The notes: a model not told the origin generated them from the sequence alone. Shown: positions 3,001 to 56,962, numbered from the stretch's first letter. The stretch is 64,000 nt of DNA from Candidatus Pacearchaeota archaeon (GCA_040879765.1 JBBDJQ010000001.1:204263-268262); one strand, 5' to 3'. A program made the numbers and translations.

Positions 3001-6000
3001 AGGAAACAACGACACCGCTGGAAGTATTTCAGACCCAGAAGCAACAATAGAATTCAACGACGGTTATGATGTCATTGTCGGAGATAAAGGAGGTTTGCTT
3101 GACTTGGCAGGGGTTGGAGGAACAGGAACTGTTGAAAATATTGATGTAGGGAAACCACAGATAAAGCTTGGAGAAACGCAGACAGTATTAGTAAGCTTGA
3201 CAAATGATGTGGGAGACCCTTTAACAGGAGAAACAATTACTGCAAATGTTCATTTCCCTGATGGAACTATCTGGCTTGAAGACAAAGTATTCACAGAATT
3301 CACTGATGGGTTTTACAGATTGGAATTTAACATGCCTTCAATAGATAATGAAATTCCTTACGGAATTTATTCTGTGCATGTATTTGGACAAGGATTTAGC
3401 GCTGTAAGAACATTTGAATTTGTGCCTGAACTTGATTTAATCTCAAGATTTAGGGTCGGTGACAAGATATTTGATATAAATTTAGCGCATTTGGATAAAG
3501 GAACAGGAAACGTTACTTTGAAATTTGAAACCTTTAATCCAAGAAGTGAAAATAAGACTTTCTCGCAATTTGACCTTTGGGAAAGAAATTATTTTATGCT
3601 TTTGCCGACAACTCTTATGGCTTCTCACTTTGATGTAGATGTTTATGAAATGAATAACAGCAGAGAGATAAATTTTGACAGTTTTGAAGACCAAAATATA
3701 AGTGACTGGAGTTTCTCAGGAGATATAATAAATCTTACAGTTGCAGAAACAACTCTTTTAAGAGACAACTTTGCATTGAATGTAACTCTTAATTTCTCAA
3801 CAGGAAACGGAACAATTGCAAAGAACATTTCATCAACAGATTTCTCAAATGTTGCAAATGAATTAAGGGAGTTTGATGTTGAATACTATCTTCCTGATCT
3901 TCAACTAGAAAACATCTCTATAAAACTAAAGACAAATGAAACAGATTATTTTGTTGAGAACAGGGAATTAAGAGGTTGGAAGATATTGTTTTCGGGAGAA
4001 TCGGCAACACACATAGATTCTTTTGATTATGATAAACTGCAAACTTTCGGAAATCCAAACATTTCAAACATAACAGGAATTGAAATAACATTCATAGGAA
4101 CAGACAATTACACTACGCCAACTTCAATTTTGGTTGATGATGTTGAATTGCATAAATTGGAAATTTTCCCTCATGACAGAATGGGCTCAAAATTCTTATC
4201 TTCTGTAACAAGCACTCTTTTCTGGTGGAATGGAGATGGAACTTACAGGCTTGAAAGTAGAGAGGAAAAAGAGTATACAGTAATATTACAGTCTCTTGAA
4301 TTTGAATGGCTCACAACATGGGCAAATGATTTCCCTAATGACGCTTTCATACAGGAAAAATACCAAGAGGCTTTAGATGCAAACTTTTATTATGAGATTT
4401 TAGTGCCGTTTGAGCAGGTTAAAGGTTATTTACTTGCAAACACTGACAAAAAACTTTTCATTGTTTCAGACATTGGAACAAGTTACAATCCAGGAGATAA
4501 AGCAACAGCAAACATAGTTACTTACGATAACACTGCAAATCTTGTTACTGCGAATGTAACTGTCACTGCAAAATACCCGAATGGAACAACCTTCTCACAA
4601 GGAACTCCAACAGAAAGCTCAACAGGAATCTACAACTACAGTTTTGTAATTCCTTCAACACTTGGAGATTATTCAACATTAATAACTGCAAATGATTCTG
4701 TGAATAAAGACGCGAGAATACATACTATCTCTGTTGTTTCGGCAACCTCTGGCTCAGGAACAGGTGGTTTGGCCTTGAACATGTTCAACTCTGTTGGAAG
4801 CAGTTATGATTTGGGAGAAACCGTAAGGCTTTTCACTACAACTGTGAATTCCTCCGGATCATTAGTTAACTCAACAGTTAATGTTGCAACATTTGACCCG
4901 GACGGAACTCAAATAAACAGCGGGGAATCTATAAGAATTTCCGAAGGAAGATTTGAGTATAACTTTACTGCGCCGAGTACAGAAGGAACCTATAGGCTTA
5001 ATATTGATTCAAACTACTCTGGAGATGAAGCTCATGACACAGAGGCGTTTATCATATCTTCAGGCGGAGGCAGTGGCGGAGACGCCTCAGTTCCACAAAT
5101 ACAAGTAGAAGCACCAAATTCCATAGATACAAACACTAACTTTAGCATAACCTCTCTTACAACTAATAAAAATGGTGTAGCAACTAGTTGTGATTCTGGA
5201 GCAAACGTAACAATAAGAGATACTTTAGCAGGAACAAACCTTGTTGACAATGAAGCAATGACAAACTTCGGAACAGGTTTGTACAATTACACTTACTCGA
5301 CTGGAACAAGCTCAAGCTTCCTTACTGTAATTGATTGTACTATTTCGGGGGTTGAATACAAAGGAATAAAATCCTTTTCAACACAAGGCGTGGCATTGCC
5401 ATCAGGAGCAGTGGTAGAAATGTCCGACTTTGATGAGGTTCTTGCAGGAAACGATTACAGGGCAAAGGTTTGGGTATTTGACCAAAACGGAAATCCAATA
5501 AACGCCAATTCAATCCCAACAGTAACTCTATATGATCCATTAAGAAACATAATTGTGCAAGATGTTTCAATGACTCAAGATTCAACTGGAATTTATGTTT
5601 ATAATTTCACAACCTCGAGTACTCAAACCGGAGGTGTCTGGGAAACTATAGCAAATGTGGTTGTAAATGGTGTAACTTACTCTCCATCAGATTTCTGGGA
5701 ACTTGAATCCAGTCCTGCAGAAGTTAAGATAAATGAAATATCAGATAAAACAGTGCCAACAATAAGTGCTGATGTGACAATTACAAATGAGGGTAACAGC
5801 AATCAAGAATACCAATATGAATACTGTATTGTTTCTCAACAAAGCAATCAGTGTGGAGGAGATGACGATGAGGATTATGCCTCAGGAGCTAAACTACTAA
5901 GTCCTGGACAGAGTTTTAATCCAACTTTGAATCTTGAAGTTTTGACAGCAGGAGATTATTACTTCAAGCTTGTTGTTTACTTTGGAACAGAAAAATCTGG

Positions 6001-6691
6001 AGCTTCCCAATTATTCACTGCAGTTGATGAAGATACCACAACAAGCGAGCCAAGTTCTGGTGGGGGTAGTGGAAGTGCTGGCGGAGGGGGAGCAGCAACG
6101 CCAAGTGAAGAACTACCTGTGGAAGGAAAATCTGAATTATTCAATATAGAAATAAATATACCTGAAAGAAACCAAAGAATTGCTCCGGGGGAAAACATTG
6201 CCGCAGGAATAAAAATCACAGACTTCAGCTCAGTAAAAGGTGCCAAAAACATTACACTATATTACTACATAGAAAACTCTAAAGGTATTGTCTACTCTGA
6301 AAAATTCGAGCAACTAACTTTGAATGAGGTTTTAGAAATATTGCGTGAAATTAAAATCCCTAAAGACACTCCTGAAGGGGCATATTCTTTTGTGGCAAAA
6401 ATTGAATATCAAGAAGAAGTGGCAATAGGAAAAAAAACCTTCAGTGTTGTTAAAGAAGATATATTGACCCCTCCTTTAACAGAAAAAGTAAATCTTTATC
6501 TAATAGCAATAATATTAATTGTTGCATTAATCATACTTTTACTCATGAGATTTTTCTATGGGGGAAAAAGAGGAAATCTAAAAAAAGACTATGCACACAG
6601 AAAGAGAAAATGGTTTGGTAAGAGTAAAACAGCCCATAGCTATCATGAAAGAGAAAGCTTAAAAAAGATTATTAGGCACATTAAGGAATAA
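2..6691 (+). CDS. Giant secreted/surface glycoprotein (S-layer/adhesin-like), 5' truncated by window edge
   Basis: Frame 2 is open from the window start (LAEDITLKEKVTSGW...), so the TTG at 302 is not the true start. Thr/Ser/Asn-rich with many N-x-S/T sequons, an FN3-like block, five Ig/MG2-like modules, a Gly/Ser linker, a C-terminal hydrophobic helix (NLYLIAIILIVALIILLLMRFF) and a basic tail. Confidence 0.9.
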   Translation: MAEDITLKEKVTSGWTAYTPSIDGTLAGVADIPRGEIRYTADNLGTIRAQEYKLLSYFILSSSEIDAAAELRYNLTWGSRNKYEDSAFKINTSRYIDESRLSYNIRTIGSFKDRSAEADDDSLYEFNITNIGDLNIANNTWNVSLSIPSQCTQSNHTGTYNSGTGKITWPLGPLNVSDINTFHLNLNCSTENRYVLSAEAVNDTQTKTSFSNSTNIDCSFSSGNDCVSTESFTFSKPSDARYETLNNVNTTIFYNWDDFKTTIGEGSVNITNDDGKGNLLWQNFSITNPDGTSGTVFSNYTLDDSEKSKFVNSARNIRVRAFVDSTSSPNGNVSVQNIAYTWDHGTLFNETHELFIDIHPFIFDLPTPVLSTPTNNSLQAAVPVGLSWEAIEEPEGVDISYYVFGDDTDASTILDTTEENLYLWRDLGAQQGIFYWKIIATDGISNTTSETRQFELDLCQPNTDFAFAESYPMSYDNITDTITIWGSNGTDFDAMGNNESNPITFQEIFEFGQAVRGVCAVNNPSSGAYVVLSRLELGNTTDSLNTTFVKTTGESLGFGKQVQLNFNATLTSGRVTAGGTPQAGSTLAFSGLDATGNEEGQFYTKSGSNLKLFDTGVSHTIDANNSNPFRLYWNGNTEIRASTLQNWHTIRFFGSNNIINNMILTDMGEGFFPATTQTGTLTTVRPSGIDTGGLMLFTENTSLTEPNFTITGLEVSESTNDILVQNYTGKAILINPTLNFSNINWTEGSFGGSIERKFDYTPTITDSIGASVANTTLVLLDTKGDLIFSLKTDAQGSIPKQIITRALYDYNFKTGDDQGPHTLYIQKYGSNFQTAAKAFSAATVETLQLGDNQFTTLSESGAEALENITYNAPTQVSHGDEINTTWSTSGTLANAPIDQCQFFAIFANSTKLVEGASNNFTINYATGEVTFNQDMSDYEIRPVYSYGGNVTVTNGLTVAEAFTMKDLYDFTQQQTTQNNLSADLLTVDGLTYTFCVDLALGNNDTAGSISDPEATIEFNDGYDVIVGDKGGLLDLAGVGGTGTVENIDVGKPQIKLGETQTVLVSLTNDVGDPLTGETITANVHFPDGTIWLEDKVFTEFTDGFYRLEFNMPSIDNEIPYGIYSVHVFGQGFSAVRTFEFVPELDLISRFRVGDKIFDINLAHLDKGTGNVTLKFETFNPRSENKTFSQFDLWERNYFMLLPTTLMASHFDVDVYEMNNSREINFDSFEDQNISDWSFSGDIINLTVAETTLLRDNFALNVTLNFSTGNGTIAKNISSTDFSNVANELREFDVEYYLPDLQLENISIKLKTNETDYFVENRELRGWKILFSGESATHIDSFDYDKLQTFGNPNISNITGIEITFIGTDNYTTPTSILVDDVELHKLEIFPHDRMGSKFLSSVTSTLFWWNGDGTYRLESREEKEYTVILQSLEFEWLTTWANDFPNDAFIQEKYQEALDANFYYEILVPFEQVKGYLLANTDKKLFIVSDIGTSYNPGDKATANIVTYDNTANLVTANVTVTAKYPNGTTFSQGTPTESSTGIYNYSFVIPSTLGDYSTLITANDSVNKDARIHTISVVSATSGSGTGGLALNMFNSVGSSYDLGETVRLFTTTVNSSGSLVNSTVNVATFDPDGTQINSGESIRISEGRFEYNFTAPSTEGTYRLNIDSNYSGDEAHDTEAFIISSGGGSGGDASVPQIQVEAPNSIDTNTNFSITSLTTNKNGVATSCDSGANVTIRDTLAGTNLVDNEAMTNFGTGLYNYTYSTGTSSSFLTVIDCTISGVEYKGIKSFSTQGVALPSGAVVEMSDFDEVLAGNDYRAKVWVFDQNGNPINANSIPTVTLYDPLRNIIVQDVSMTQDSTGIYVYNFTTSSTQTGGVWETIANVVVNGVTYSPSDFWELESSPAEVKINEISDKTVPTISADVTITNEGNSNQEYQYEYCIVSQQSNQCGGDDDEDYASGAKLLSPGQSFNPTLNLEVLTAGDYYFKLVVYFGTEKSGASQLFTAVDEDTTTSEPSSGGGSGSAGGGGAATPSEELPVEGKSELFNIEINIPERNQRIAPGENIAAGIKITDFSSVKGAKNITLYYYIENSKGIVYSEKFEQLTLNEVLEILREIKIPKDTPEGAYSFVAKIEYQEEVAIGKKTFSVVKEDILTPPLTEKVNLYLIAIILIVALIILLLMRFFYGGKRGNLKKDYAHRKRKWFGKSKTAHSYHERESLKKIIRHIKE

Positions 6692-8602: not shown

Positions 8603-9976
8603 TTAATCTCTATTTATTTCTTTTTCAATTATTTCCTTGGCAACTTTGAAATCCGCTCTTTTGTTTGAGATTTTCATAACCTGGCCTATTAAGAAATTTA
8701 TGGATTCCTTTTTACCTTGTTTGTAATCTTCTGCAGCTTTTGGATTTTTTCTAATAACTTCTTTTGCTATTTTTTTAATCTCTGATTTTGAAGAAATCTT
8801 CTTAGAACTTTTAGCTTTCTCTTTCGGAGAAAATGATTTTGGAATAAACTCATTTAAAATTTCTTTTGCTTTTAATTCTGTAATGGTTTTTCTCTCAATT
8901 AGCTTTAGAAGCTCTATAAAATGATTTGTTTGAATTGAGACTTCATGAAGTTCTTTTTTTGAATAATTTAAAACTCTCAATAATTCTCCAGTAACCCAGC
9001 GACTTGCAAGTTTTGGTTCGACTTTTTTTATTATTTGTTCGAAAAATTCAACCAAATCTAAATTAGTTGTAAGGATTTCTGCATGTTTTTTCTCGATTTT
9101 ATGTTTTTTTATAATCCCTTTTATTTTTTCTTGAGGTCTTTCAGGTAAAGATTTTTTCTCTTTATCAATTTCTTTTTTATCCACTTTCAAAACAGGCAAG
9201 TCTGGTTCTGAAATAAATCTGTAGTCTTCTGCTAATTCTTTATCCCTCATCTTCATAGTCTTTCCAGAAATTTCATCAAACATTCTTGTCTCAAGTTTTT
9301 TTGCTAGCTCTCCTGGCTTGCTTTGCCTAGAAATTTCATATTCAATTGCCCGTTCTATGTTCTTTAAGCTGTTGATATTTTTTATCTCAACTCTTTCTCC
9401 TTTTAATTCAGGAATAGAAACATTAACATCTGCCTTGACTCCTAGGGTTCTATCAATTATTTTCATGTAAGTTAGAGTTTCGACTAATTGTTTCATCCAT
9501 CTTATGACTTGTTTTGAATTTATGAAATCTGGCTCTGTAACAATTTCAATTAAGGGATAACCTGATTTGTTATAATCTATTTCCCCTGTTTTTGGATTCC
9601 ATGCTGCAGGATCTTCTTCTAAATGCGCCTCGGTTATTTTTATGTTTTGGAAATTTCCATTTTCACAGAAAGGAATTACATGACTTCCAGAAATTGTGTT
9701 TTGATATCCTTTTGGTAAATCCGGCCAGCTGTAATGTTTTCTTTGCCAAGCCACTTTGGGATTAATTTTGCATCCAAGAATTAGTGCTATTTGAATTCCT
9801 TTTCTTATTGCTTTTTTATTTGGTAGCATGAGTTTTGCTCCTGGTTGCCCAGTGCAAATTGGACATATGTTTGTGTTTGGTTTGCTTATCTTTGATCCGT
9901 GTGTGGAATTACATGAACAGAATAATTTTTCCTTTGTTTTAAGATATCCATGGATTTCTAATCCTATTTTGACCAT
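8603..9976 (-). CDS. gatB: Asp-tRNA(Asn)/Glu-tRNA(Gln) amidotransferase subunit B
   Basis: KIGLEIH, NTNICPIC, YSWPDLPKGYQ, HLEEDPA, PLIEIVTEPD, C-terminal Yqey-like domain (FLIGQVMK). Confidence 0.97.
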   Translation of the reverse strand: MVKIGLEIHGYLKTKEKLFCSCNSTHGSKISKPNTNICPICTGQPGAKLMLPNKKAIRKGIQIALILGCKINPKVAWQRKHYSWPDLPKGYQNTISGSHVIPFCENGNFQNIKITEAHLEEDPAAWNPKTGEIDYNKSGYPLIEIVTEPDFINSKQVIRWMKQLVETLTYMKIIDRTLGVKADVNVSIPELKGERVEIKNINSLKNIERAIEYEISRQSKPGELAKKLETRMFDEISGKTMKMRDKELAEDYRFISEPDLPVLKVDKKEIDKEKKSLPERPQEKIKGIIKKHKIEKKHAEILTTNLDLVEFFEQIIKKVEPKLASRWVTGELLRVLNYSKKELHEVSIQTNHFIELLKLIERKTITELKAKEILNEFIPKSFSPKEKAKSSKKISSKSEIKKIAKEVIRKNPKAAEDYKQGKKESINFLIGQVMKISNKRADFKVAKEIIEKEINRD

Positions 9977-10025
9977 AATTCAAAAAAGAAAATGTGCTTT
10001 ATTAATTTGATGTCTTTGTGAAAAG

Positions 10026-24721: not shown

Positions 24722-24771
24722 TTTTGCCTCCGTTTTATTTTTAGGTTAGGGTTTTCTATTTTATAAGGCTT

Positions 24772-24981
24772 GCGATTAGCCATACGCTTCGGCAAATTGT
24801 GCTAAAGCGAAATTGATTTCCTTTGCGATTAGCCATACGCTTCGGCATAATGTGTCTTCGACATCATTGATTTCCTTTGCGATTAGCCATACGCTTCGGC
24901 GGGAAATAGGCGATTAGCCATACGATTCTACTTCGCTGCATATGCTTCGCCAGGAAACAGGCGATTCCACCTCCTTCGTTC
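24772..24981. repeat. Tandem cluster of modular GC-rich repeat family (locus 1)
   Basis: GCGATTAGCCATACGCTTCGGC at 24772, 24825 and 24879, partial at 24910, then related GATTC-type modules to ~24981. Confidence 0.95.
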
Positions 24982-25029
24982 ATTGTATAGTATTCTCTAA
25001 AGGATTATCCATTAGCGATTGCTGACTTT

Positions 25030-25327
25030 GTAAATCAGGTTTTTTTTAGGGGGATAATTTTAATCAGAATTAGGATCAATTAAACCCGTTTTGAAAAATT
25101 GCTATGTTTGGTCTGGATTTTTCTAAACAATTTGGAAACTGTTTTGTGTCATACAAGAATCATCTTTGAAAATAATTCACTAGTTCCATCAGAAGCCATT
25201 TCAATAACTAGATTTGAGTCATCTCTTATTGCAGCGCATAGTATCTTCTAATATGGGACATCGCGCTTGGTGTAAATACAAATCTCATATGAATCAATCT
25301 TTTTCTTTTAAGTTGCTCGTAATTCAT
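25030..25327 (-). pseudogene. Possible degraded ORF
   Basis: MNYEQLK... continues after a frameshift as KIDSYEICIYTKRDVPY*KILCAAIRDDSNLVIEMASDG... Confidence 0.3.
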
Positions 25328-25328
25328 A

Positions 25329-25808: not shown

Positions 25809-26186
25809 ATGGAGGTTGGTGCATCCTTGGAAACTTCAGAGGCAAATAAGAAAAGAATTGATAGAGTTAATTCGAGGAGAAGAGCAGATAGAAGAATAGA
25901 GGAGATATTTGGATCAGGTTTTATAATATCAAATTATCCTGGAATAACTAATATCTATAAAACAAAAGGGATTTTTCAAAAAAAAGTTCAGGAAATTTGT
26001 AGCATAGATTATATGAATGGAGAGGTTATTTCTTATTCTTATTCTTTTGATTCAGATTTTCAAGAACAAATTCAAAAAGCATATTTCTCTCTTGCCGCAT
26101 ATTTAGATTGTGATGGAATTGGAAGATTTGGGGAAGTTGAATTGAGATGGGAATGTAAATTCCCTAATCTCGAGGCTGTTTTATGA
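25809..26186 (+). CDS. Hypothetical protein
   Basis: ATG at 25809, 21 nt after TTTATAAA. Confidence 0.6.
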   Translation: MEVGASLETSEANKKRIDRVNSRRRADRRIEEIFGSGFIISNYPGITNIYKTKGIFQKKVQEICSIDYMNGEVISYSYSFDSDFQEQIQKAYFSLAAYLDCDGIGRFGEVELRWECKFPNLEAVL

Positions 26187-26234: not shown

Positions 26235-26786
26235 ATGATCAAGAATGTAGTTTTTGGGATTGCGATTATGATTCTTACAATTTCTGTAGGAGTTTATGGA
26301 ATTAACTTAGTTTTTGATTCTCCAGAATATAGTAATTTTTGTGGAGAATTTAGAACGCAGGAGATTATAGAGACTCAAACTCAGTGTGAATCTATTGGTG
26401 GAAAATGGACTAGTTATGAAATAAAATGTATAACTGATGAACCTTGTCCTCAGGGATATTGTGACCGGGACTACCAATGTAGGCAGGATTATGAAGAGGC
26501 ACAGGAGAATTATTACAGAAATGTTTTCTTTGTTGTAGTTCCTTTGGGAGTTGTTTTAATTGGATTGGGCGCTTTCATATTTGGACTTGAATCTGTGGGC
26601 GCAGGTTTGATGGGTGGAGGGGTTGGATTGATTCTATTTGGGGTCGGAGGATTTTGGAGATTTGCAGGAGACTGGATTAAATTTACATTATCTTTACTTG
26701 GACTTGCCGCAGTTATAGTGACAGCTTATTGGTTTAATTTAAAAAATTGGAATATTTGGAAGAAAAAAAGTAGAAAGAAAAAATAA
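26235..26786 (+). CDS. Hypothetical membrane protein with Cys-rich extracytoplasmic loop
   Basis: N-terminal TM, six-Cys loop, three C-terminal TM helices. Confidence 0.8.
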   Translation: MIKNVVFGIAIMILTISVGVYGINLVFDSPEYSNFCGEFRTQEIIETQTQCESIGGKWTSYEIKCITDEPCPQGYCDRDYQCRQDYEEAQENYYRNVFFVVVPLGVVLIGLGAFIFGLESVGAGLMGGGVGLILFGVGGFWRFAGDWIKFTLSLLGLAAVIVTAYWFNLKNWNIWKKKSRKKK

Positions 26787-26788
26787 TT

Positions 26789-27427
26789 TTATCCTAACCA
26801 CCTAATTACGTTTGGCCTTGGCTCAAAAACTGTTCCTTCTTCAAGTAATTTTTGAATTTCGGTTTCTATTTGTTCTTTTGGAATTTCGTTAATTTGAGAA
26901 ATTATTGATTCTTTTTCTATTCCACCTTGAGCTTCTGCATTTTTTATTAAATCCGTAATTTTTTCCCTAAAATCTTTTCTTACTTCTTTATTAGGTTGGG
27001 AATTTTGATTTGGGGTTTGCAGTGCATTTGCTTTTTCTAATTCCAATTTCCTTACAACAAGATATCTTGGATCTGTTTCTTTAACTGTTTCTGGAGAAAT
27101 ATAAATTTCATCATTGAAGTATCTTAAAACTCCAATAACAATCACTGTCTTTCCATGTTCAATATCTTTTATTTTTTCTATATCATCTCCAAAAACCTTG
27201 AGTTTTGTTTGCCCTGAAGCATCATCAAGAGTTATGAAAACATATTTTTTTTCCTCATCAACTACATATTTATCGACAATACTTGCAACCACATTTACTC
27301 TTACAACTCTTTTTCCGTTTAAATTCAAGTGGGTAAATTTCTCATTTTCAATTACTGGCTTTCCAGATAAAATGTCTCCAATTCTTAATTTGTATGCAAC
27401 GTTTCGTTTAAATTGTTCTTCAGGCAT
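26789..27427 (-). CDS. OB-fold ssDNA-binding protein with C-terminal winged helix (RPA2/RPA32-like)
   Basis: RVNVVASIV, TLDDASG, VIVIG.LR, FEPRPNVIRWL; adjacent to MCM. ATG at 27427 preferred, because the listed GTG lies inside the repeat. Confidence 0.8.
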   Translation of the reverse strand: MPEEQFKRNVAYKLRIGDILSGKPVIENEKFTHLNLNGKRVVRVNVVASIVDKYVVDEEKKYVFITLDDASGQTKLKVFGDDIEKIKDIEHGKTVIVIGVLRYFNDEIYISPETVKETDPRYLVVRKLELEKANALQTPNQNSQPNKEVRKDFREKITDLIKNAEAQGGIEKESIISQINEIPKEQIETEIQKLLEEGTVFEPRPNVIRWLG

Positions 27428-27428
27428 C

Positions 27429-27501
27429 GTGATTCCACTCACTTCGTTCGTTGCATACGCTTAGCCAGGAAACAGGCGATTCCGCTTCGTTGCATACGCT
27501 T
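27429..27501. repeat. Modular repeat family (locus 2)
   Basis: 70/73 nt identical to 31981-32053; 1 nt from the start codon. Confidence 0.95.
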
Positions 27502-27563
27502 TGTCCGAATTTTAGATTTTTATTTAATTTTTTCATTTTATTTTAATTTTTTTTAAATGCATT

Positions 27564-29576
27564 TTACATCTTTTGAACATAACCCGAACGTGGTTCATAA
27601 ATTATGCTGTTTTTAATTAGTTCTGTTATAGCTTCATCAATTTCGTCTTTTTCTAATTTTCCCTCTAGTTCTTTTTCTATTTCTTCTATAGGAATTAAAT
27701 CTCCGACCTTGTTTTTTAATTGATTTATAGTGTCTCTAACTATGAAAACCTTATTTCTTTTTGAAGTTGACATTCCAGAAATTCTATCTATGTCTATGGT
27801 TTTTGATTCGTAGTCATAACCAACTTGCATAAGATAATATTTCATTATATCTATGGATTTTTTTGCATCCTCTTTTGTGACGATGCTATCTAAGCGTACT
27901 TTTGCAGAAGCTTCAGACATTCTAATCAAGGCTTCTAATTGTCTTGCAGAGATTGGGATTGGTCTTAGAGAGGCATCTGAAGATACCTGTGAATTTCTCA
28001 AATCTATGTAGAATTTTTCTATTTCTTGAATTGCTTCCTCACTTAATTTTGGAACTATTTTCTGTTTTGAATAAGCAACATATTTTCTGAACATTTCTCT
28101 TGGGATTATCATCGCTTTTCCTTCTTTTCTGTGTTCGTCTAAAATGTGCCGTGCAATCAAGGTGTCTTTCTCTCTGTTTGGAATATCTCTTAATGTAAAT
28201 ATAACATCAAAACGATTTATTAAAGTTGGAGGCAAATCAATTTGCTGCGAGATTGATTGAAAAGGGTCGAATCTACCGAACTTTGGATTCGCTGCCGCTA
28301 AAACAGAGGTTTCGGCTTTTAGGGTCGCTTGAACATTCGCCTTACTTATTGTTATGGTTTGCTGTTCCATTGCCTCATGCATTGAGGATCGATCCTGAGG
28401 GTCCATTTTTTCTAATTCATCTATGCAAACTAAACCTTTATTTGCAAGAACCATTGCTCCTGCTTCCAAAGACCAACCTCTCAGGTATTCGTCTCTTACA
28501 ACTGTTGCTGTTAGTCCTGCTCCAGACGCAGATTTACCAACAACATATCTTCCTTTTGGAGAAATCTCAGCCATGAAATTAAGTGTGACGGATTTTGCAA
28601 CCCCCGGGTCTCCTATAAGGAGTATGTGTATGTCTCCCCGAGATCTTTGCCCATCTATGTGGATTTTTTTTACACCTCCAAAAAGTTGAAGGATCAGGGA
28701 TCTTTTTATTTCCTCGTGGCCCCAAACTGATGGAACAATGCTTTTTGCAAGCTTGTCAAAAATTTCTGGGTCTTTTGAAAGTTCAAGTATTTCTTTTTCA
28801 TCTTCTTCACTTATGTCTAATTCTTCAAAGGTTTCTTCAAGAGCTATAAGATTGTTAACTTCTATAGCTAATTCAAACCTTGTTGACAATCCTCCAGAGG
28901 CTAATGGAACTGGAACTTCTTTCAAAACTCCGATTACTTTTACTCTACTACCTGGAGTTGTCTTTTCCTCCATTCTTGGCTCAACTAAATCTTCTTTTAC
29001 AAAAACATTTAGTCTTTTTGGTTGCTCTCCTCCAGAAAGAGATTCTGGAGATTCTTCAATTACTAATCTTTGAGTATCAACCATCTTTCTACTTACTTGC
29101 CTGAATCCACCTTTTCTTCCACATGAACACCTTGTAGGTTCTCTGAATTTTTTTTCTAGTTGCATTACTCCCTGAATTGTCCCACAGCTTGGACATTCAA
29201 AAGAAGCTTGAATAACCTGGGGTCTTACATCACTTGCTTGGCGAATAATCCCCTCAACAACAACCATCTCATTTAGATTTCTAGAACGAATATTCCTTAT
29301 CTTTATTTGCAAACTAGCAGGCATGTTGAACAATCTTACTCTGACGTTCTTTAACATTGGGGAATCTTCTATTGCCAATTCTATTAAGCTAAGAACTTCT
29401 TCGGGATTTGATAGTGTTTCTTCAGAAAGTTTACTTGAAAACTCTGAAAGCTTCATAAAGTCTATGAAAATAACGTTGTTTCCTTGCTTTATTGAGTCTG
29501 CTAACTCTCTTTTATGGAAATCAAAAAAATTCTTCGCCTCTATTATTAATGCTTCTTTTGTCTTCGCCTCTGCCAT
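27564..29576 (-). CDS. mcm: Replicative MCM helicase
   Basis: CPSC...CSC zinc finger, GDPGVAKS, VCIDELEKM, AAANPKFGRF, ARQLEALIR; no intein. Confidence 0.97.
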   Translation of the reverse strand: MAEAKTKEALIIEAKNFFDFHKRELADSIKQGNNVIFIDFMKLSEFSSKLSEETLSNPEEVLSLIELAIEDSPMLKNVRVRLFNMPASLQIKIRNIRSRNLNEMVVVEGIIRQASDVRPQVIQASFECPSCGTIQGVMQLEKKFREPTRCSCGRKGGFRQVSRKMVDTQRLVIEESPESLSGGEQPKRLNVFVKEDLVEPRMEEKTTPGSRVKVIGVLKEVPVPLASGGLSTRFELAIEVNNLIALEETFEELDISEEDEKEILELSKDPEIFDKLAKSIVPSVWGHEEIKRSLILQLFGGVKKIHIDGQRSRGDIHILLIGDPGVAKSVTLNFMAEISPKGRYVVGKSASGAGLTATVVRDEYLRGWSLEAGAMVLANKGLVCIDELEKMDPQDRSSMHEAMEQQTITISKANVQATLKAETSVLAAANPKFGRFDPFQSISQQIDLPPTLINRFDVIFTLRDIPNREKDTLIARHILDEHRKEGKAMIIPREMFRKYVAYSKQKIVPKLSEEAIQEIEKFYIDLRNSQVSSDASLRPIPISARQLEALIRMSEASAKVRLDSIVTKEDAKKSIDIMKYYLMQVGYDYESKTIDIDRISGMSTSKRNKVFIVRDTINQLKNKVGDLIPIEEIEKELEGKLEKDEIDEAITELIKNSIIYEPRSGYVQKM

Positions 29577-29664
29577 ATATGAAATTTAGAGGCGATTTGT
29601 TTTTATAGTTTGTTGTTAAAAATTAAGCATAATCAAGAATAATGGTTATTTCTTAAGAGTAAAA

Positions 29665-30222
29665 TTAGTAATTCTTCAAAGCAGCTTTAACATTTTTAAG
29701 AAGTTGGGTCATACTTTCTTCCAATTGCTGTTTGTTCTTTGTTCCAGTACAAACGAGCTTTCCATTAGAGAAAAGAAGAAATGTGGCATTTGGTTCGATT
29801 AATTTATAAACTAAACCAGGGAATTGTTCTGGTTCATATTCGGTATTTTCCATTTCTAAAGCTAAGAAATTCAAATTAAGTTTGAGGTCTATGGTTCCTG
29901 AAGCAACAATATTTTGAACAGTTACTTTGGGTTTTATAGTAATTTTAATATTTATTTTTTTAAGTTGTTTTATCACTTCTTGAATTACTTTGTTAACTTG
30001 AGTAATTGATTTTGTTCCAGTGCAAACAAGGTTTCCTGAGGAGAATACCAAGACTGCTGATTTTGGTTCTTTGACCCTTAAAACCAAACCAGGGAATGTT
30101 TTTGGGTTATATTCAGTGTTTGGTTGATTTTTTGCAAGCTTAACTAATGGAATAGGTTTTTCTAAAGAAGTTGTTGCAACAATATTTTGAATTTGATAGT
30201 TGCTTTTAGATTTTGCTGCCAT
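29665..30222 (-). CDS. tbp: TATA-box binding protein
   Basis: Two repeats NIVA...EYxPExFPGLV...LxFSxGxLVCTG. Confidence 0.97.
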   Translation of the reverse strand: MAAKSKSNYQIQNIVATTSLEKPIPLVKLAKNQPNTEYNPKTFPGLVLRVKEPKSAVLVFSSGNLVCTGTKSITQVNKVIQEVIKQLKKINIKITIKPKVTVQNIVASGTIDLKLNLNFLALEMENTEYEPEQFPGLVYKLIEPNATFLLFSNGKLVCTGTKNKQQLEESMTQLLKNVKAALKNY

Positions 30223-30267
30223 TTTATTCTATTTATAAAAGAAAGCTATTTATAAAGGTTTTTGGAA

Positions 30268-31980
30268 TCAACCATATACATAATTTCTTTTTTGATTTGC
30301 GAAATCTTTTTTGAGTTCATCCAATGTATTAACTTCTGAAATGTGTTTATCTGGTCTTAAGGTTATGAATCTTGGAAATCTTAAAGCCCAACCAGAGTTA
30401 TAATTTGGAGATTTTTGAATTTGCTGATATGTTACTGCAACTACTATTTTTGGTTTTATTTCTACAGACTTTCCTTTTTCCTTTGTTATGTAAGGTTTCA
30501 ATAAATTGGTTAGAGATTCAAATGTTATATCTTCTTCTCCTGCTTCAGATTTTTCCTTTATCCCTATTCCAACTTTTCCGACTTCTAAATATTTCTCTCC
30601 ATGTTTACAAGAGATAATAAAACTTGACATCCAGCCTCCTCTTTTTCCAGCACCATATTCTGCACCAGTGATAACTAAATCTAAATCCCTTTCTTCTGGT
30701 TTCATCTTAACCATGTTCCCAACTCTTCTTCCAGGCCTGTATGGAGATTCAAGATTTTTGAACATAATCCCTTCTTGTGAATTTTTCAAAGCTTCTTTAT
30801 AGAATTTTTCAGCTTTATTTTCATCATCAGTAATTAATTGTTTGGAGGAAATTATTTTGTAGGGTTTATCTGTGACTATTTTCCTAAGTAACTTTGTTCT
30901 TTTTTTGAAAGGTTCATTTAACATAGATTTCCCATTGTGGTAGAGTATATCGAAAATATTTAACTCAACTGGAAGTTCATCTTGTAGTTTTTGAATATCG
31001 TATTTCCTCCTTATTCTTTGACTTATTTTTTGGAAATCAGTGTACTCTTTTGTTTTTTTATCATAGCCTACTGCTTCAGAATCTAAGATGAATGACTTTC
31101 CTTTGACATATTTTTTTATGTAATTAACAACTTCTGGAAATTGATTTGTTACGTTTTCTAAACTTCTTGTAAATACAATTAATTTGTCATCTTGCTTATG
31201 GATCAACATTCTGAAGCCATCATATTTATATTCTAGGGCACAAGGGCATCCAACTTCCTTAAACCCTTCTTTTATTGATGTGACTTTTTTTGGAAGCATA
31301 GCTTTTATTGGCTTTCCAATTTTAAGATGGACTTTTTCTAAATCTTTTAATTTCCCTTTTTTTGCAATTCCAAAAACCTCAGAGATGTCATTTGCTTTAT
31401 CTATTGTTTCTTGTATTTTTAGTGAACATTCTTTATCTCCTTTGAAAAACGCAGAACATAGGGCTTCACGAATTGTACTTTCTTGAACCCCAATTCTTAA
31501 ATCTCCAATTAAAGTCCTTACTAAATATTGTGAACCTATTGGGGAAGCAGAGGTCAAAAGTTCTGTGATTAATGCAAGTTTTTTATTAATGGATCCTTTA
31601 CCTTCTAACTCTGGAAGTTTCCTTAAATTACTCAAAACTTTTTCTGTTGTCAATGCAATTTCATGAAGTGTGGATTGTTTCTTTTTCTTTTTTAATTTCT
31701 CGGCAACTTGCCCTAAATCTCCAAGATTTTTCCACTCCTTGACTACTTCATTTTTATCTGTCCCAACTGCAAGAGCAATAGATTTTATGGCTAATTGATT
31801 GCTTATCCCGATTCTTCTTTGATCGCTTTCAGGATAAATATCTCCCATAAGAAGGTACATGACTTCTTTGTCTAACTCATGGACTTGAGTTAAAAATTTA
31901 GAAAGAATTTTTATTTTTTCAAGTCTTTTTGTCGTTGAAGCTAAGGCTTCATAAGTTTCAGCGAGTTTCTTGTAAAGCAT
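30268..31980 (-). CDS. lig: ATP-dependent DNA ligase
   Basis: EYKYDGFR, ILDSEAV, EGIMFK, YRPGRR, ALRFPRF. Confidence 0.97.
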   Translation of the reverse strand: MLYKKLAETYEALASTTKRLEKIKILSKFLTQVHELDKEVMYLLMGDIYPESDQRRIGISNQLAIKSIALAVGTDKNEVVKEWKNLGDLGQVAEKLKKKKKQSTLHEIALTTEKVLSNLRKLPELEGKGSINKKLALITELLTSASPIGSQYLVRTLIGDLRIGVQESTIREALCSAFFKGDKECSLKIQETIDKANDISEVFGIAKKGKLKDLEKVHLKIGKPIKAMLPKKVTSIKEGFKEVGCPCALEYKYDGFRMLIHKQDDKLIVFTRSLENVTNQFPEVVNYIKKYVKGKSFILDSEAVGYDKKTKEYTDFQKISQRIRRKYDIQKLQDELPVELNIFDILYHNGKSMLNEPFKKRTKLLRKIVTDKPYKIISSKQLITDDENKAEKFYKEALKNSQEGIMFKNLESPYRPGRRVGNMVKMKPEERDLDLVITGAEYGAGKRGGWMSSFIISCKHGEKYLEVGKVGIGIKEKSEAGEEDITFESLTNLLKPYITKEKGKSVEIKPKIVVAVTYQQIQKSPNYNSGWALRFPRFITLRPDKHISEVNTLDELKKDFANQKRNYVYG

Positions 31981-32058
31981 GTGATTCCACTCACTTCGTT
32001 CGTTGCATATGCTTAGCCAGGAAATAGGCGATTCCGCTTCGTTGCATATGCTTAGCCA
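31981..32058. repeat. Modular repeat family (locus 3)
   Basis: Abuts the lig ATG directly; two internal GATTCC...GCATATGCTTAGCC sub-units. Confidence 0.95.
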
Positions 32059-32121
32059 TTTTAATTTTTCGAAATAATTTTCCTCTTTAGAAAATCAAGA
32101 AATGGAAGTTTTTAAGTTTGA

Positions 32122-32694
32122 TTATTTCCCTTTCCTACCTTGTGCCCTTATACTTGGTCTTACCTTAAGCTCTCTGGATTTTTTTCTTAATCCTCTAGAT
32201 TTGTTTCCTGCCGATGTCAATCCCCTGAAAACTCTGCCTTTGTTTGCAGGTGTCGTAATCCACTTAAGCTTTTTATCTGATTTTATTTCTGGCCTATTTG
32301 GGTCGACTAAGATTACTTCATAGAAATAATGAATTCCATCTTTTCCAATATTGTAGGAATTTAGCACTTCTAAATTCTTGTATTTTCTTCCTGCTCTTTG
32401 CTCTGCAATCCACTTATAATTCATCTTAAGATTCTTTCTTGTGTGCAATCTCTTAGATCTACGTCCTTTGTTTGGTCTGGGTCTTTTGTGCCCTCCCCTC
32501 TTTAATTTTACTCTTAAGATTGTAAATCCTTTCTTATCCTTGTATCCCAAAGCTCTAGCCCTATCTAGTCTTAGAGGTTTATCAACCCTAGTTATTGATT
32601 GGCTTTTTCTCCATTCAACCATTCTTTCCCTAAGTGTTTTTTTCTCTGGCTTTTTCCAAGCTTCCTTTATGTAATGATATAATCCTTTAACCAT
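32122..32694 (-). CDS. rpl15e: 50S ribosomal protein L15e
   Basis: RLDRARALGYK, NLEVLNSY, RVFRGLTSAG. Confidence 0.97.
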   Translation of the reverse strand: MVKGLYHYIKEAWKKPEKKTLRERMVEWRKSQSITRVDKPLRLDRARALGYKDKKGFTILRVKLKRGGHKRPRPNKGRRSKRLHTRKNLKMNYKWIAEQRAGRKYKNLEVLNSYNIGKDGIHYFYEVILVDPNRPEIKSDKKLKWITTPANKGRVFRGLTSAGNKSRGLRKKSRELKVRPSIRAQGRKGK

Positions 32695-32733
32695 GTGCGA
32701 TTAGTCATACGCTTCGACAATTTGTGCTGAAGC
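32695..32733. repeat. Modular repeat family (locus 4)
   Basis: GTGCGATTAGTCATACGCTTCGACAATTTGTGCTGAAGC matches the unit plus spacer at 24772-24808; abuts the rpl15e ATG. Confidence 0.85.
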
Positions 32734-32892
32734 AATGTTTATTATTTATCAAAGAAAAAAGTGGTTTTTAAATCTTAGGATTTTGAACCCCAAAAATTTG
32801 AACTGGATCTCCACGCAAACTAAAGAAAATTTTGTAGGTTTTAAAGTTTCTTAAACAAACTTTTTTAAATTGATTATTGTATTTGATTCTGA

Positions 32893-33259: not shown

Positions 33260-33919
33260 TTATTCTTTGGAATCTAATTCGATAAGCAATTTACCTTTAG
33301 AAAAATTGTAGTCAATTATTGGGAAGCTTATAGGAATTATTTTTGTATAAGCTTTGTTTTTTGTTCTGGCTCTTATTTCTATGTTGTTTTCAAGTCTTGT
33401 TATTGAAATATCTTTTAAGGATTTTACTCCTGGAATATTTATTTCATAAATAACTTTATCTGAAAATCTTCTTACATTTGTTCTTGGCTCATTTTTTGGA
33501 AGTTCGGAGAAACCTTCTAAATTATTTTGAGGCAATTCCAAATCCATAAACTCTTCTTTTATTTCGTGTTTCTTTTTCTTTGTTGTTTTCTTTGGATTTG
33601 GGTTATCGATTCTTTTTCCATTTATGAATAGTTGGAAATTTGATTTTGGTTCTTGATGGTTTTGCTTATTTGCTTCTTTTTGCATTTCTTTTTCAAGCAT
33701 TTTTATTGCATTTTCAAACATTTTCCCAACAACTTTTCCTCCTACTCCTCCAAATAAAGAATTTTGTATGTCTTCTAATCCGTTTAGTAAATCATCTTCC
33801 CCTAACATTCCAGAATCCTTTTTTGATTTTTTATCGCAAAGATTTCCACAATGTGGGCAAAACAAATATTTACTATTTACACCTTCTCCGCACCTCTTAC
33901 ACTTCTTCTTGTTGAACAT
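33260..33919 (-). CDS. Zinc-ribbon plus Hsp20/alpha-crystallin-like protein
   Basis: N-terminal CKRC..CPHCG; C-terminal YEINIPGV...YNFSKGKLLIEL. Confidence 0.75.
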   Translation of the reverse strand: MFNKKKCKRCGEGVNSKYLFCPHCGNLCDKKSKKDSGMLGEDDLLNGLEDIQNSLFGGVGGKVVGKMFENAIKMLEKEMQKEANKQNHQEPKSNFQLFINGKRIDNPNPKKTTKKKKHEIKEEFMDLELPQNNLEGFSELPKNEPRTNVRRFSDKVIYEINIPGVKSLKDISITRLENNIEIRARTKNKAYTKIIPISFPIIDYNFSKGKLLIELDSKE

Positions 33920-34025: not shown

Positions 34026-34418
34026 ATGAAAACAATACAAGAATCTAGAAAAATAGAGTCTGTTAGAAGTCCTCATGTTCGGTATCATTGGGAATCCTCA
34101 AAAGATGATAAGGGAATTTTGAAATATGGTGTGCTGGTGGTTAGCAAATATAGGGTTCAAAGAGAAGAAATTATGGATAGGATTTTTGGAGATATCGCGT
34201 CTATTCATTCTGGCATAGAAGTTCTTAGAGAAGTTGAGGGAAGTATTTTGAATAGTCATGGGCTTAGATACTTGTTTAATCAGTTTGATACTCCAGTAAA
34301 ACCCTCTGAGATTCAATGGCATGATTTTGGTTTGCCTGTTGTCCGAGATAGAGGATTGTATGAGCGTGTTAAGAAAGGGGCCAGTGTTGAGGCTTATATC
34401 GAAAGCCTTTTTAGTTAG
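34026..34418 (+). CDS. Hypothetical protein
   Basis: 130 aa; TTTTTATA 22 nt upstream. Confidence 0.6.
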   Translation: MKTIQESRKIESVRSPHVRYHWESSKDDKGILKYGVLVVSKYRVQREEIMDRIFGDIASIHSGIEVLREVEGSILNSHGLRYLFNQFDTPVKPSEIQWHDFGLPVVRDRGLYERVKKGASVEAYIESLFS

Positions 34419-36813: not shown

Positions 36814-37341
36814 ATGGGATTGGATGAGTTACCTGATAGTGTTTTGGACAGAGATAATAAAGCCTTACAGAAAATGATTGAAAAAAGAAATGAGGATATT
36901 TTAAGCAGGAGCAAAAATTGGAAGGTGGAACATCTTTGGGAAGCTGTTGATAGAGAATATATCGGGGATTTGCCTGAAGGCTGGGAGTATTCAGATTATG
37001 TTTCACAAATTAATTTTCTTTCAGGTTCCATAATCTTGAGAGGTGAGGCAAAGGATAGTTTAATCCTAAGGACCTATTGGGAGCCCCAGGGTAATTCATT
37101 TTGTGAAAATTATTTATGGAGGCAAAGAATAGATAATTCTGATCACACCGGAGGTAGTATCTGGGGTGAATGTTTTGGAGAACTCCCTGAACATTTTGAT
37201 AGTTATTCTGAAAAAAAACTTGTTGATTGGCATAAAGATGCATTGGATAAACACAAAAAAGTTTTGGATAAAATAGAAGAAGATTATCTTTCTCCGTCAG
37301 GTTTAGTAATTGGTGGGGATTTTTTGAAAAAATTCTCTTAA
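36814..37341 (+). CDS. Hypothetical acidic, Trp-rich protein
   Basis: 175 aa; TATTTAAG 21 nt upstream. Confidence 0.7.
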   Translation: MGLDELPDSVLDRDNKALQKMIEKRNEDILSRSKNWKVEHLWEAVDREYIGDLPEGWEYSDYVSQINFLSGSIILRGEAKDSLILRTYWEPQGNSFCENYLWRQRIDNSDHTGGSIWGECFGELPEHFDSYSEKKLVDWHKDALDKHKKVLDKIEEDYLSPSGLVIGGDFLKKFS

Positions 37342-38170: not shown

Positions 38171-38611
38171 TTACTTAAGGAGAAATTGTTTTGTAGAACT
38201 TATAAACTTTTCTAACATTTCAGCGTAAATTTTGAGTTGGTCAAGGTTTATGTTGATTTCTTCACCTCGATAAATGACCCTTAATGTTACATTTTTTCTA
38301 AATTCCCCTATCTTTTCTCTTCTCAATTCTTCAATTTTTTTGAACATTTCATATAAGTCAAGGGTTTCAATGAAGTTTTTTTCTTTTTTGAAAAGTTTCC
38401 TTACTTCAATTAATCTTGAAGCAGGGTTTGTTGGAATAGAAGATATTTTTTTCTTTTTTTTGGCGTGAGCCAAAATATGGTCTATACTTATATCTATCAT
38501 GCCTCTCCAACGTAGAATTAGGTTGAGAATGACATCGCATGTTTTAGTATACTTTAGACTAACATAAAGCAAATGGTCTGCGCTAATTTTTTCTTGAATT
38601 ATTTCTTCCAT
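38171..38611 (-). CDS. Hypothetical protein
   Basis: 146 aa ORF in an apparent operon with NAC and minD. Confidence 0.75.
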   Translation of the reverse strand: MEEIIQEKISADHLLYVSLKYTKTCDVILNLILRWRGMIDISIDHILAHAKKKKKISSIPTNPASRLIEVRKLFKKEKNFIETLDLYEMFKKIEELRREKIGEFRKNVTLRVIYRGEEININLDQLKIYAEMLEKFISSTKQFLLK

Positions 38612-39206: not shown

Positions 39207-39236
39207 GCGATTCCGCTTCGCTGCATACGCTTCGCC
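39207..39236. repeat. Modular repeat family (locus 5)
   Basis: GCGATTCCGCTTCGCTGCATACGCTTCGCC between the divergent secG and valS TATA boxes. Confidence 0.88.
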
Positions 39237-55387: not shown

Positions 55388-55540
55388 GGCTCCGTAGCTC
55401 AGCCTGGTTAGAGCACTGGACTTTTATGCCCAACTTTCTTTAAAGAAAGTTCGGCGCTCAAAGAATAAAGCAAATTGCTTTGCTCAAGAGTGAATCGCAA
55501 AGAGATCCAGGTGTCGGGGGTTCAAATCCCCTCGGGGCCA
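55388..55540 (+). tRNA. tRNA-Lys(TTT) with 78-nt intron at 37/38 (55427-55504)
   Basis: GGCTCCG/CGGGGCC acceptor, CTGGA/TCCAG anticodon stem; bulge-helix-bulge with CTTT:AAAG central helix and two 3-nt bulges. Confidence 0.93.
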
Positions 55541-56296: not shown

Positions 56297-56962
56297 ATGA
56301 AAAAGAAAAAGAAAAGCGATTCCACTTCATCTCATACGCTTCGCCATGGAACGACTGGAATGACTAGGATTCTTGCAGTTGGAGATTTGCATGGAGACCG
56401 AAGACTAATAGATGGGCTGGCAAAAAAAGCCAAAGATGAAAATGTTGACTTGGTAATTTTAGCTGGCGATTTGACTTTTGCTGAAACTTCAACAGAAAAT
56501 ATAGTTGGACCTTTTCTCAAGGCAGGAAAAGAAGTTTTGATAATTCCTGGAAACCATGAATCGCCTGCAACCACAGAATTTTTGTCAAAGAAATATTTAG
56601 ACACGACACATCTTCATGGAAATCATTTTATTAAAGGTAATCTTGGAATTTTTGGAGCTGGTGGAGCAGATATAGGGGTTTATCAGATTGATGATTCTGA
56701 AATTCTTAAACTGTTGGGAAAAAGCCACGACAAGGTTAAATCTCTTGATAAAAAATTAATGGTGACCCACATACATCCTGCAGGAACAAATTCGGAATTT
56801 TCTGGTTTTAAGGGCTCCAAGGCTGTGAGAAAAGCGATAGATAAATTTCAGCCAGATGTTGCAGTTTTTGCACACATTCATGAGGCTGCTGGAACTGAGG
56901 ACAAAATAGGAAAGACAAGGGCAATAAATGTCAGCAGGAAGGGGAAGGTTTTTGAGGTTTGA
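56297..56962 (+). CDS. Calcineurin-like metallophosphoesterase with repeat-encoded N-terminal extension
   Basis: GDLHG, AGD, GNHE, TH, HIHE. TTCTTAAG 21 nt before ATG 56297; alternative ATG at 56360. Confidence 0.9.
   Translation: MKKKKKSDSTSSHTLRHGTTGMTRILAVGDLHGDRRLIDGLAKKAKDENVDLVILAGDLTFAETSTENIVGPFLKAGKEVLIIPGNHESPATTEFLSKKYLDTTHLHGNHFIKGNLGIFGAGGADIGVYQIDDSEILKLLGKSHDKVKSLDKKLMVTHIHPAGTNSEFSGFKGSKAVRKAIDKFQPDVAVFAHIHEAAGTEDKIGKTRAINVSRKGKVFEV
56316..56345. repeat. Modular repeat family (locus 6, in-frame within CDS)
   Basis: GCGATTCCACTTCATCTCATACGCTTCGCC; translated as SDSTSSHTLRH. Confidence 0.8.

Follow-up and report, generated by a model that had tools for sequence, protein, structure and literature searches.

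This study concerns a 64,000-nucleotide (nt) stretch of DNA from a Candidatus Pacearchaeota archaeon (GCA_040879765.1, JBBDJQ010000001.1:204263-268262; hereafter the window, meaning the whole stretch at its full length), and in particular two near-identical leaders that abut the start codons of an RPA2-like gene and of the gene for ATP-dependent DNA ligase (lig). On the minus strand the genes follow one another in the order L15e, lig, TBP, MCM and RPA2-like, with aIF2-beta further on. TBP, MCM, aIF2-beta, L15e and an intron-containing tRNA (55388-55540) are archaeal markers, and the closest ligases (73-75% identity) belong to metagenome-assembled genomes (MAGs) of Pacearchaeota, Woesearchaeota or Nanoarchaeota. 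A repeat search and direct comparison of minus-strand 27429-27501 with 31981-32053 gave 70 identical positions out of 73, and gapped alignment widened the similarity to about 79-86 nt (27428-27506 versus 31981-32059). The features at the gene starts, including the upstream open reading frames (uORFs), are the following:

26789-27427, minus strand: RPA2-like gene, 212 aa, with an OB fold and an RPA_C winged helix (Pfam)
27428-27506, minus strand: two-unit composite repeat abutting the RPA2-like start; unit 1 is GGACAAAGCGTATGCAACGAAGCGGAATCGC+CTGTTTCCT, unit 2 is GGCTAAGCGTATGCAACGAACGAAGTGAGTGGAATCAC+G
27439-27495, minus strand: uORF of the RPA copy, 18 codons, MQRSGIACFLAKRMQRTK and stop, beginning at the invariant GTATG of unit 1
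30268-31980, minus strand: ATP-dependent DNA ligase gene, 570 aa, start supported by homologues
31981-32059, minus strand: two-unit composite repeat abutting the lig start, identical to the RPA copy at 70/73 nt
31991-32059, minus strand: uORF of the lig copy, 22 codons, MAKHMQRSGIAYFLAKHMQRTK and stop, by translation
32122-32694, minus strand: ribosomal protein L15e gene, 190 aa, by homology
32695-32743, minus strand: 49-nt single unit AATAAACATTGCTTCAGCACAAATTGTCGAAGCGTATGACTAATCGCAC, flush with the L15e ATG, from the repeat search and comparison

Each leader consists of two sub-units, and both sub-units of one copy carry the same G/A variant. The leaders differ at three positions, all of them G-to-A changes (GCGTATGC/GCATATGC twice, CTGTTTCC/CTATTTCC once), and the GCGTATGC/GCATATGC differences are CpG transitions, one per sub-unit. 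Both copies end in ...GGAATCAC(G) before the ATG: ...GAAGTGAGTGGAATCAC is followed by G-ATG at the RPA2-like gene (ATG 27427-27425) and by the ATG directly at lig (ATG 31980-31978), where the start agrees with the way in which 120 homologues begin (M[LRNK]Y[KQ]KLAE). The uORF stops lie 11 nt (RPA) and 10 nt (lig) before the main ATG. An earlier note on this DNA had reported the match abutting both start codons, the uORF translations with their stops 10-11 nt upstream, and sub-unit variants common within a copy but different between copies, and all of this was borne out. The local homogenisation that it had proposed from the variants is possible, but the variant is a CpG transition that recurs in another lineage (L050 versus L053), so that parallel mutation is an alternative. 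The repeats have a GC content of 47-51%, that of the window being about 32-33%, and an independent Logan assembly of SRR27977663 is identical at these loci.

The leaders are part of a family of GC-rich, non-palindromic direct repeats with units of 39-54 nt and a core of the form GGCGAAGCGTATG-(GCT or CAGCGAAGCGG)-AATCGC, in which an invariant GTATG is present in every unit. The pattern AAGCRTATG-N3-12-AATCRC has eight matches in the window, all on the minus strand, and none in 100 shuffles, and GAAGCRTATG has seven matches against 0.05 expected from shuffles. Six loci of the window hold the family, four of them beyond the RPA and lig leaders: the L15e unit at 32695-32743 and the three below.

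24767-24977, minus strand: array of about five units (long, hybrid and three short; spacing 53-54 nt) in a 607-nt intergenic region
39207-39236, minus strand: solo long core GGCGAAGCGTATGCAGCGAAGCGGAATCGC between divergent genes, with the Sec61beta TATA box 10 nt downstream of it
56316-56345, minus strand: solo long-core variant, antisense to a metallophosphoesterase gene, in a 21-residue N-terminal extension or leader

The last unit of the array ends at the TATA box CCTTATAAAA (24759-24768) of a gene for a 64-aa DUF5679 protein.

Most window genes that open transcription units have a TTTATAA or TTTAAAA box whose end lies 21-25 nt from the ATG; operon-internal genes carry GGAGG. For archaeal promoters, a TATA box at this distance implies a leaderless mRNA. 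At L15e, in 13 of 19 relatives, the TATA 8-mer ends 21-22 nt before the ATG, with the conserved spacer CCAnTTTTTTCT; the window gene keeps the TATA box and the 21-nt spacer, which are followed by exactly 49 nt of repeat and then by the ATG. At lig, relatives have TTAAAAAC and then about 20-23 nt to the ATG, and in the window the lig insert of about 107 nt comprises a 28-nt AT-rich stretch (32060-32087) and the 79-nt repeat. The displacement of the RPA promoter is about 101 nt, and its candidate boxes are ATTTAAAAAAAA (27547-27558) and ATTAAATAAAAA (27517-27528), the latter ending 21 nt before the uORF ATG. The upstream sequences concerned are:

27517-27558, minus strand: AT-rich stretch past the MCM stop, with candidate RPA TATA boxes, one of them presumably in use
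32060-32116, minus strand: retained lig promoter, CTTAAAAA (32109-32116) plus spacer CTTCCATTTCTTGATTTTCTA (32088-32108), as in relatives
32744-32772, minus strand: retained L15e promoter, TTTAAAAA (32765-32772) plus 21-nt spacer CCACTTTTTTCTTTGATAAAT (32744-32764), matching 13/19 relatives

Since the old TATA box and its spacer of about 21 nt are kept upstream in the window as compared with the relatives, the element must have entered between the region of transcription start and the ATG. Comparison with relatives thus shows the RPA, lig and L15e elements to be insertions into ancestrally leaderless genes at this junction. If the old promoters fire at their usual distance, the element would form a new 5′ untranslated region (UTR) of about 49-107 nt, with primary starts predicted near 32743 (L15e), at about 32085-32088 (lig) and at about 27495-27530 (RPA).

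Scans of public collections revealed the same cores in further DPANN contigs, at conserved gene positions in unrelated assemblies from JGI, ENA and NCBI, the family being confined to some tiny DPANN archaea. At loci L047/L051 the core is flush with the ATG of a gene for a tRNA-binding-domain protein (...GGAATCGCA, then ATG), and at L063 with that of an SRP54-like gene (...CTAATCGCAC, then ATG), the junction being the same as at L15e in the window. In the CAZKZO MAG, all four copies lie 1-18 nt past tRNA 3′ ends. At L058 (3780-3960) and L061 (615-745) of that MAG there are tandem units of 40-41 nt (GGCAGACACTGAGTGAAAATCAAGATGTGTTTATCACCCTA) with an antisense short core at the head, and the CAZKZO arrays occupy the full gap from the tRNA 3′ end to the next protein ATG; there is no TATA box or Shine-Dalgarno (SD) motif between, which implies tRNA-mRNA co-transcripts. 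At L046 (124-215), L048 (46-142), L054 (9341-9435) and L055 (13326-13420), a composite about 92 nt long follows an intact tRNA gene, for tRNA-Ser or tRNA-Gln. Its parts are, in order, a hairpin, GGATGTCGGAC, the long core and a degenerate duplicate of the T-arm and 3′ acceptor strand of the tRNA. Such duplicates of a tRNA 3′ segment were seen at these four loci, and the window copies have none. The composite hairpin has an invariant, anticodon-loop-like CUGAAAG loop and, among the four sequences, three compensatory pairs out of eight. As a whole the composite resembles a miniature insertion of the attachment-site (att) type or a tRNA-like 3′ fragment without integrase. Finally, in the gene for the Bud32 kinase the core lies antisense and in frame within the coding region. 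The long core gave only one, chance-level, Bacillus match in GTDB representative genomes.

Among 38 distinct copies, an ATG lies 0-2 nt past the 3′ end of the core in 9/38, against a background of 4.5% (binomial P=3.6e-5); verified protein starts account for five of the nine, and tRNA ends (AATCGC-T-ATGC...) for the other four. Repeat clusters no more than 120 nt from a called tRNA number 7/32 against 3.3% expected (P=6.8e-5), and two further clusters adjoin truncated or uncalled tRNAs. Because insertion anywhere in the 21-nt spacer would yield a similar leadered transcript, selection alone does not explain the ATG-flush inserts, which would imply some site preference.

The earlier note had left two readings side by side, a shared co-regulatory leader for replication genes that handle single-stranded DNA (ssDNA) and targeted insertion at start codons. 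Targeted insertion gains support from L15e, where promoter and 21-nt spacer stand upstream of the flush 49-nt insert, and from the enrichment of copies at start codons, the lack of which the note had put forward as a refutation. The co-regulatory leader did not hold up: the family also precedes L15e, SRP54-like and tRNA-binding genes, none of the 42 lig orthologue loci examined in relatives carries the element, and the family was found neither in the 638 kb around those orthologues nor in 19 L15e orthologue promoters. A replication regulon was likewise rejected, as MCM and TBP, situated between RPA and lig, show normal TATA boxes and lack the element, and unrelated genes carry it. In two other MAGs lig is preceded by a GC-rich leader of another kind, over 85 nt long (L001 2096-2205 and L008 3005-3114; GCGATTT...AAATCGCTTA...CCGCTNAGGTTGT), and at L039 (about 9960-10000) a G-rich stretch GGGGCGGGTGGTCGGGGAGTGGATGGTGGG immediately precedes the lig ATG, so the lig start may be a repeated target of different inserts.

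The reading that we prefer, at a probability of roughly 0.6, is that both leaders are sister copies, recently formed, of a two-unit member of a lineage-restricted repeat family, inserted at the ATGs of ancestrally leaderless genes and presumably mobilised in trans. That the RPA and lig copies are young follows from their 96% identity. The element would be non-autonomous and duplicative, with copies landing beside ATG/CAT at gene boundaries through a trans-acting enzyme that may prefer ATG/CAT-flanked sites or gene ends. The retained promoters would now transcribe it as a fresh 5′ UTR of the length given above, and the uORFs as well as the apparent link to replication genes would be by-products. 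A recent preprint names RAYT (REP-associated tyrosine transposase, K07491) as the sole transposase family to give strict hits among 256 Nanobdellota proteomes, and reports it in Pacearchaeales (10.64898/2026.05.13.725050). A Y1 HUH (RAYT/IS200-like) enzyme is for that reason the leading candidate for the mobiliser, as a lead and not as a result.

Several observations weigh against this reading. The window copies have no terminal inverted repeats (TIRs), their ends sharing just GCGA...TCGC (4 nt); there is no target-site duplication (TSD), the L15e insert being bounded by ...GATAAAT/AATAAAC and CGCAC/ATGG; and the element contains no palindrome. The lack of all three means that no known transposition chemistry is indicated. 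Two Pfam scans of the window and of about 870 kb of DPANN loci turned up no gene for a recombinase, a transposase or a reverse transcriptase, and a scan for HUH plus YxxxNP (RAYT) was negative in the same sequences, which are genome fragments. Two contigs longer than 400 kb each contain the long core only once, so it is not a proliferating repeat everywhere. The transcription starts are deduced from promoter geometry, and no close strain with an empty site was found in the protein database, the nearest lig being 75% identical. Lastly, the Bud32 insert is 98.8% identical among five loci whose 99-nt flanks are 78% and 73% identical, and a purely selfish, drifting insert does not explain a near-invariant core amid flanks of about 75% identity.

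The Bud32 insert consists of 33 antisense nt that add 11 in-frame codons (CDSASLHTLRP) between HGDLTTSNMI and KIFFIDFG at these five loci. It lies in a surface loop that joins the catalytic motif to the DFG motif, and is present in several lineages with junctions identical across all of them. Its invariance points to selection at the nucleotide level (through a partner that binds DNA or RNA), to gene conversion, or to repeated site-specific insertion or recombinational spread. Without the insert, the loop is four residues shorter than in any insert-free homologue, so that the event joined an insertion to a deletion. Monophyly of the insert-bearing Bud32 proteins was not recovered, as they occupy at least four positions in a neighbour-joining tree, but its 197 columns are too few to trust. 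A bulge-helix-bulge (BHB) intron was rejected, since RNAalifold on the five loci gave -8 kcal/mol with no BHB and no compensatory pairs. The HGDLTTSN-DFG loop of DPANN Bud32 (KEOPS), normally 11 residues long, is an insertion hotspot: about 40% of the 120 closest homologues (P0121-P0240) have in-frame loop inserts of up to +57 residues, many of them unrelated, GC-enriched sequences such as ..GGRELASEVASR.. and ..KRGDNNFK... The loci concerned are L049, L050, L052, L053, L056 and L071-L073. The other loop inserts are GC-enriched but unrelated to the core, and were rejected as family members. In the metallophosphoesterase gene of the window, the extension (56297-56362, plus strand) reads MKKKKKSDSTSSHTLRHGTTG; the core there reads SDSTSSHTLRH, in the same frame as the Bud32 insert (S/C-D-S-x-S-x-H-T-L-R), and the Pfam domain begins at residue 24. 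Two candidate starts exist for this gene, ATG 56297 or ATG 56360.

Folding indicated no significant structure, with z between -1.4 and +1.4 for RNA and about 0 for ssDNA; for cores and whole units on both strands, the z-scores of ssDNA and RNA ran from -0.5 to +0.1. Hairpins occur upstream of the core in some variants, at L063 (z=-3.4) and, with covariation, at L046, L048, L054 and L055; the window copies have none. Two GCGAAGC mini-hairpin motifs (PMC13037366) are present, and their stability is not captured by nearest-neighbour models. Rfam covariance models detected tRNAs only, even at E<=5, and a known RNA family was rejected, since the element was matched neither at the gathering threshold nor at E<=5.

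Among the rival explanations, an unlikely one is that the core of 22-31 bp is a host recognition site in DNA, bound by a conserved DPANN protein, either a regulator or a chromosome organisation or segregation factor, and kept by selection wherever it lies, comparable to parS sites or to intragenic origin recognition box (ORB) sites. It agrees with the nucleotide-level conservation in Bud32 and in the tRNA-Ser-linked copies, with the occurrence of copies both along and against local transcription, which makes a single RNA role less likely, with the lack of significant folding of RNA and ssDNA, and with six window loci on one strand within 32 kb of the replication-gene cluster. However, the positions at lig, RPA and L15e are not conserved between related genomes, the tandem arrays and the 96%-identical copies look recently duplicated, the core has no dyad symmetry, and the ATG-flush ends are left unexplained. 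An ORB or mini-ORB site for Orc1/Cdc6 was rejected specifically, as just the half-site AGTGGAA occurs in some long cores and the short units are devoid of it (PMC1904270). Quite unlikely, in our opinion, is a functional translational leader, in which a translated uORF followed by reinitiation would couple the expression of RPA and ligase. The uORF stops at lig and RPA, though not in the L15e copy, are near enough to the main AUG for reinitiation, and the TATA-like box ending 21 nt before the uORF ATG gives the RPA copy the spacing expected of a leaderless start. A true SD is missing from both genes, and the eight extra nt of unit 2 provide an intermediate anti-SD pairing (rank 12/74): with a canonical 16S tail assumed, pairing amounts to -6.5 kcal/mol for RPA and lig, -1.2 for L15e and -2.2 to -4.3 in other genomes, true SDs in the window reaching -9.5 to -11.4. 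On the other hand, the L15e leader thus has no SD-like pairing, and the absence of consistent pairing among leaders led us to reject a role as SD donor. The family also stands beside tRNAs and before the unrelated genes already named, MCM and TBP of the same cluster do without it, and so do the lig and RPA orthologues of 42 relatives. The outcome of the uORF varies as well, from an in-frame extension (L047/L051) through short, overlapping out-of-frame ORFs (L063 and L15e of the window) to a stop ahead of the ATG, and the two differences that fall within the uORF shared by RPA and lig are non-synonymous (C/Y and R/H). A uORF peptide under selection was rejected on these two grounds. We judge the uORFs to be incidental; they probably arise only because every unit carries GTATG.

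Turning to the RNA level, the core could be the recognition sequence of an endonuclease that cuts ...AAUCGC(AC)/AUG and restores a leaderless mRNA, which we regard as improbable. Such processing would fit the core ending 0-2 nt before the ATG in five unrelated genes, the lack of a consistent SD in leaders of essential genes, and the CAZKZO arrays, which bridge tRNA 3′ end and ATG with no promoter and imply a processed co-transcript; yet in those arrays a different sequence and the opposite orientation of the element abut the ATG, the core has neither structure nor covariation, and other copies lie antisense, upstream of TATA boxes or inside a coding region, where processing would be senseless. 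Translation of the SD-less L15e, lig and RPA mRNAs may rely on reinitiation after the uORF, on processing to a leaderless mRNA or on SD-independent initiation. It is very improbable that the elements are footprints of site-specific integration, that is, att-flanking remnants of integrative plasmids or viruses that use tRNA genes and gene starts. The position of the element between an intact tRNA and a degenerate T-arm/acceptor duplicate at L046, L048, L054 and L055 is a classic integrase signature, and the enrichment near tRNAs fits, but no integrase or cargo genes lie nearby, the neighbours of the insert of about 92 nt being housekeeping genes, the inserts measure merely 49-107 nt, and no duplication of the gene start is seen at lig, RPA or L15e. 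The core is on no IMG/VR viral contig either, and a viral or plasmid parent was rejected for want of a match there. Chance similarity or an assembly artefact can practically be dismissed given the eight pattern matches where none is expected, the identical independent assembly and the recurrence of the core in unrelated JGI, ENA and NCBI assemblies.

Beyond the insertion of sister copies, one may think of a kind of archaeal mobile element not described before, which would target the first nucleotide of leaderless genes as well as tRNA gene ends, turn leaderless mRNAs into leadered ones, and have its invariant core of 22-31 nt recognised by a trans-acting enzyme or RNA. We offer this only tentatively, as a doubtful but not negligible possibility. 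If it is true, the element would be tolerated at L15e, ligase and RPA because the RNA is either removed or competent for SD-independent initiation. Most genes of these DPANN archaea are leaderless, and essential genes for L15e, ligase and RPA appear to have gained SD-less leaders of 49-107 nt by exact insertion at the start codon. They would offer a natural before-and-after system for initiation on SD-less leadered archaeal mRNAs and for the origin of 5′ UTRs. The data also point to a mechanism of insertion whose site preference is precise to the nucleotide, in genomes otherwise held to carry hardly any mobile DNA. That the core stays invariant even inside a kinase gene is accounted for by no current model. 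For annotation, the lesson is that identical upstream sequences at functionally related genes need not mean a regulon.

A few further observations were made in the window. The intergenic region that holds the array (24722-25328, 607 nt) is unusually long for a compact genome, and its part from about 24990 to 25328, with no ORF and no Rfam match, could hold a non-coding RNA. A Logan contig terminates within the array at 24.8 kb, and the repeats are able to break assemblies. ORFs without a Pfam family lie near repeats at 33260-33919, 34026-34418, 36814-37341, 38171-38611, 26235-26786 and 25809-26186, and the product of 26235-26786 resembles a membrane protein. The two longest direct repeats of the window are gene-internal duplications that are unrelated to the family, namely the TBP repeats (29738-29848/30011-30121) and the AAA domains of CDC48 (51233-51459/52055-52281). 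The 153-nt tRNA gene with a long intron (55388-55540, plus strand) was detected by Rfam and missed by ARAGORN. An ORF of 1757 aa (1418-6691, plus strand), probably for a surface protein, has MG2 (alpha-2-macroglobulin-like) as its sole Pfam match, which is unusual for a reduced DPANN genome.

Compared with known systems, the family is closest to small repeats of the repetitive extragenic palindromic (REP), miniature inverted-repeat transposable element (MITE) and Rickettsia palindromic element (RPE) kinds, but tests showed it to lack features that define each of them. Like REPs and bacterial interspersed mosaic elements (BIMEs) with their RAYT, it is short (about 20-40 nt) and non-coding, has a higher GC content than the genome, occurs dispersed and in small arrays, and has a core conserved across species; but REPs are imperfect palindromes with GTAG/CTAC, mostly at gene 3′ ends, whereas the window family is non-palindromic, with an unfolded core, no GTAG and a position flush with start codons or tRNA ends. 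With MITEs, including the IS200/IS605-derived palindrome-associated transposable elements (PATEs), it has in common that it is small, non-autonomous, multi-copy, lineage-restricted and absent from orthologous sites (PMC10969869). It differs from them in having no TIRs, TSD or paired subterminal hairpins, and its units of 22-49 nt are below any described PATE (PMC10969869). In the absence of terminal inverted repeats, target-site duplication and palindrome, an identity as MITE or REP was rejected. The location of all window copies on one strand recalls IS200/IS605 elements, being expected under ssDNA transposition, and the CAT found 0-2 nt from the antisense end in 9/38 copies recalls their tetranucleotide targets. 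RPEs likewise insert in frame into protein genes, as in Bud32, and have symbionts with reduced genomes as hosts, but they are palindromes of 100-150 bp that drift with the host gene, unlike the 33-nt, non-palindromic and near-invariant Bud32 insert. Mobile promoters (PMC3575422) are similar in that near-identical sequences lie directly upstream of non-homologous genes of one genome; here, however, canonical TATA boxes lie outside and upstream, and the element is a leader rather than a recognisable promoter. Inside it, at -22 to -30, there is just GCRTATGC or CAAATTG, and a portable promoter was rejected, as the position of GTATG relative to the ATG varies (about -28, -21 and -15) and the canonical TATA boxes are kept upstream. 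Ty3 and the tRNA gene-targeted retroelements (TRE) of Dictyostelium are eukaryotic autonomous retroelements that are tethered by TFIIIB/TFIIIC and integrate at Pol III starts or tRNA flanks. Although no reverse transcriptase or integrase is linked to the window family, it resembles them, by analogy only, in insertion 0-2 nt from a transcription start, in its strong tRNA association and in the compactness of the genome, and if the element does home to the first nucleotide of leaderless genes, it would be a prokaryotic counterpart to the transcription-start targeting of Ty3.

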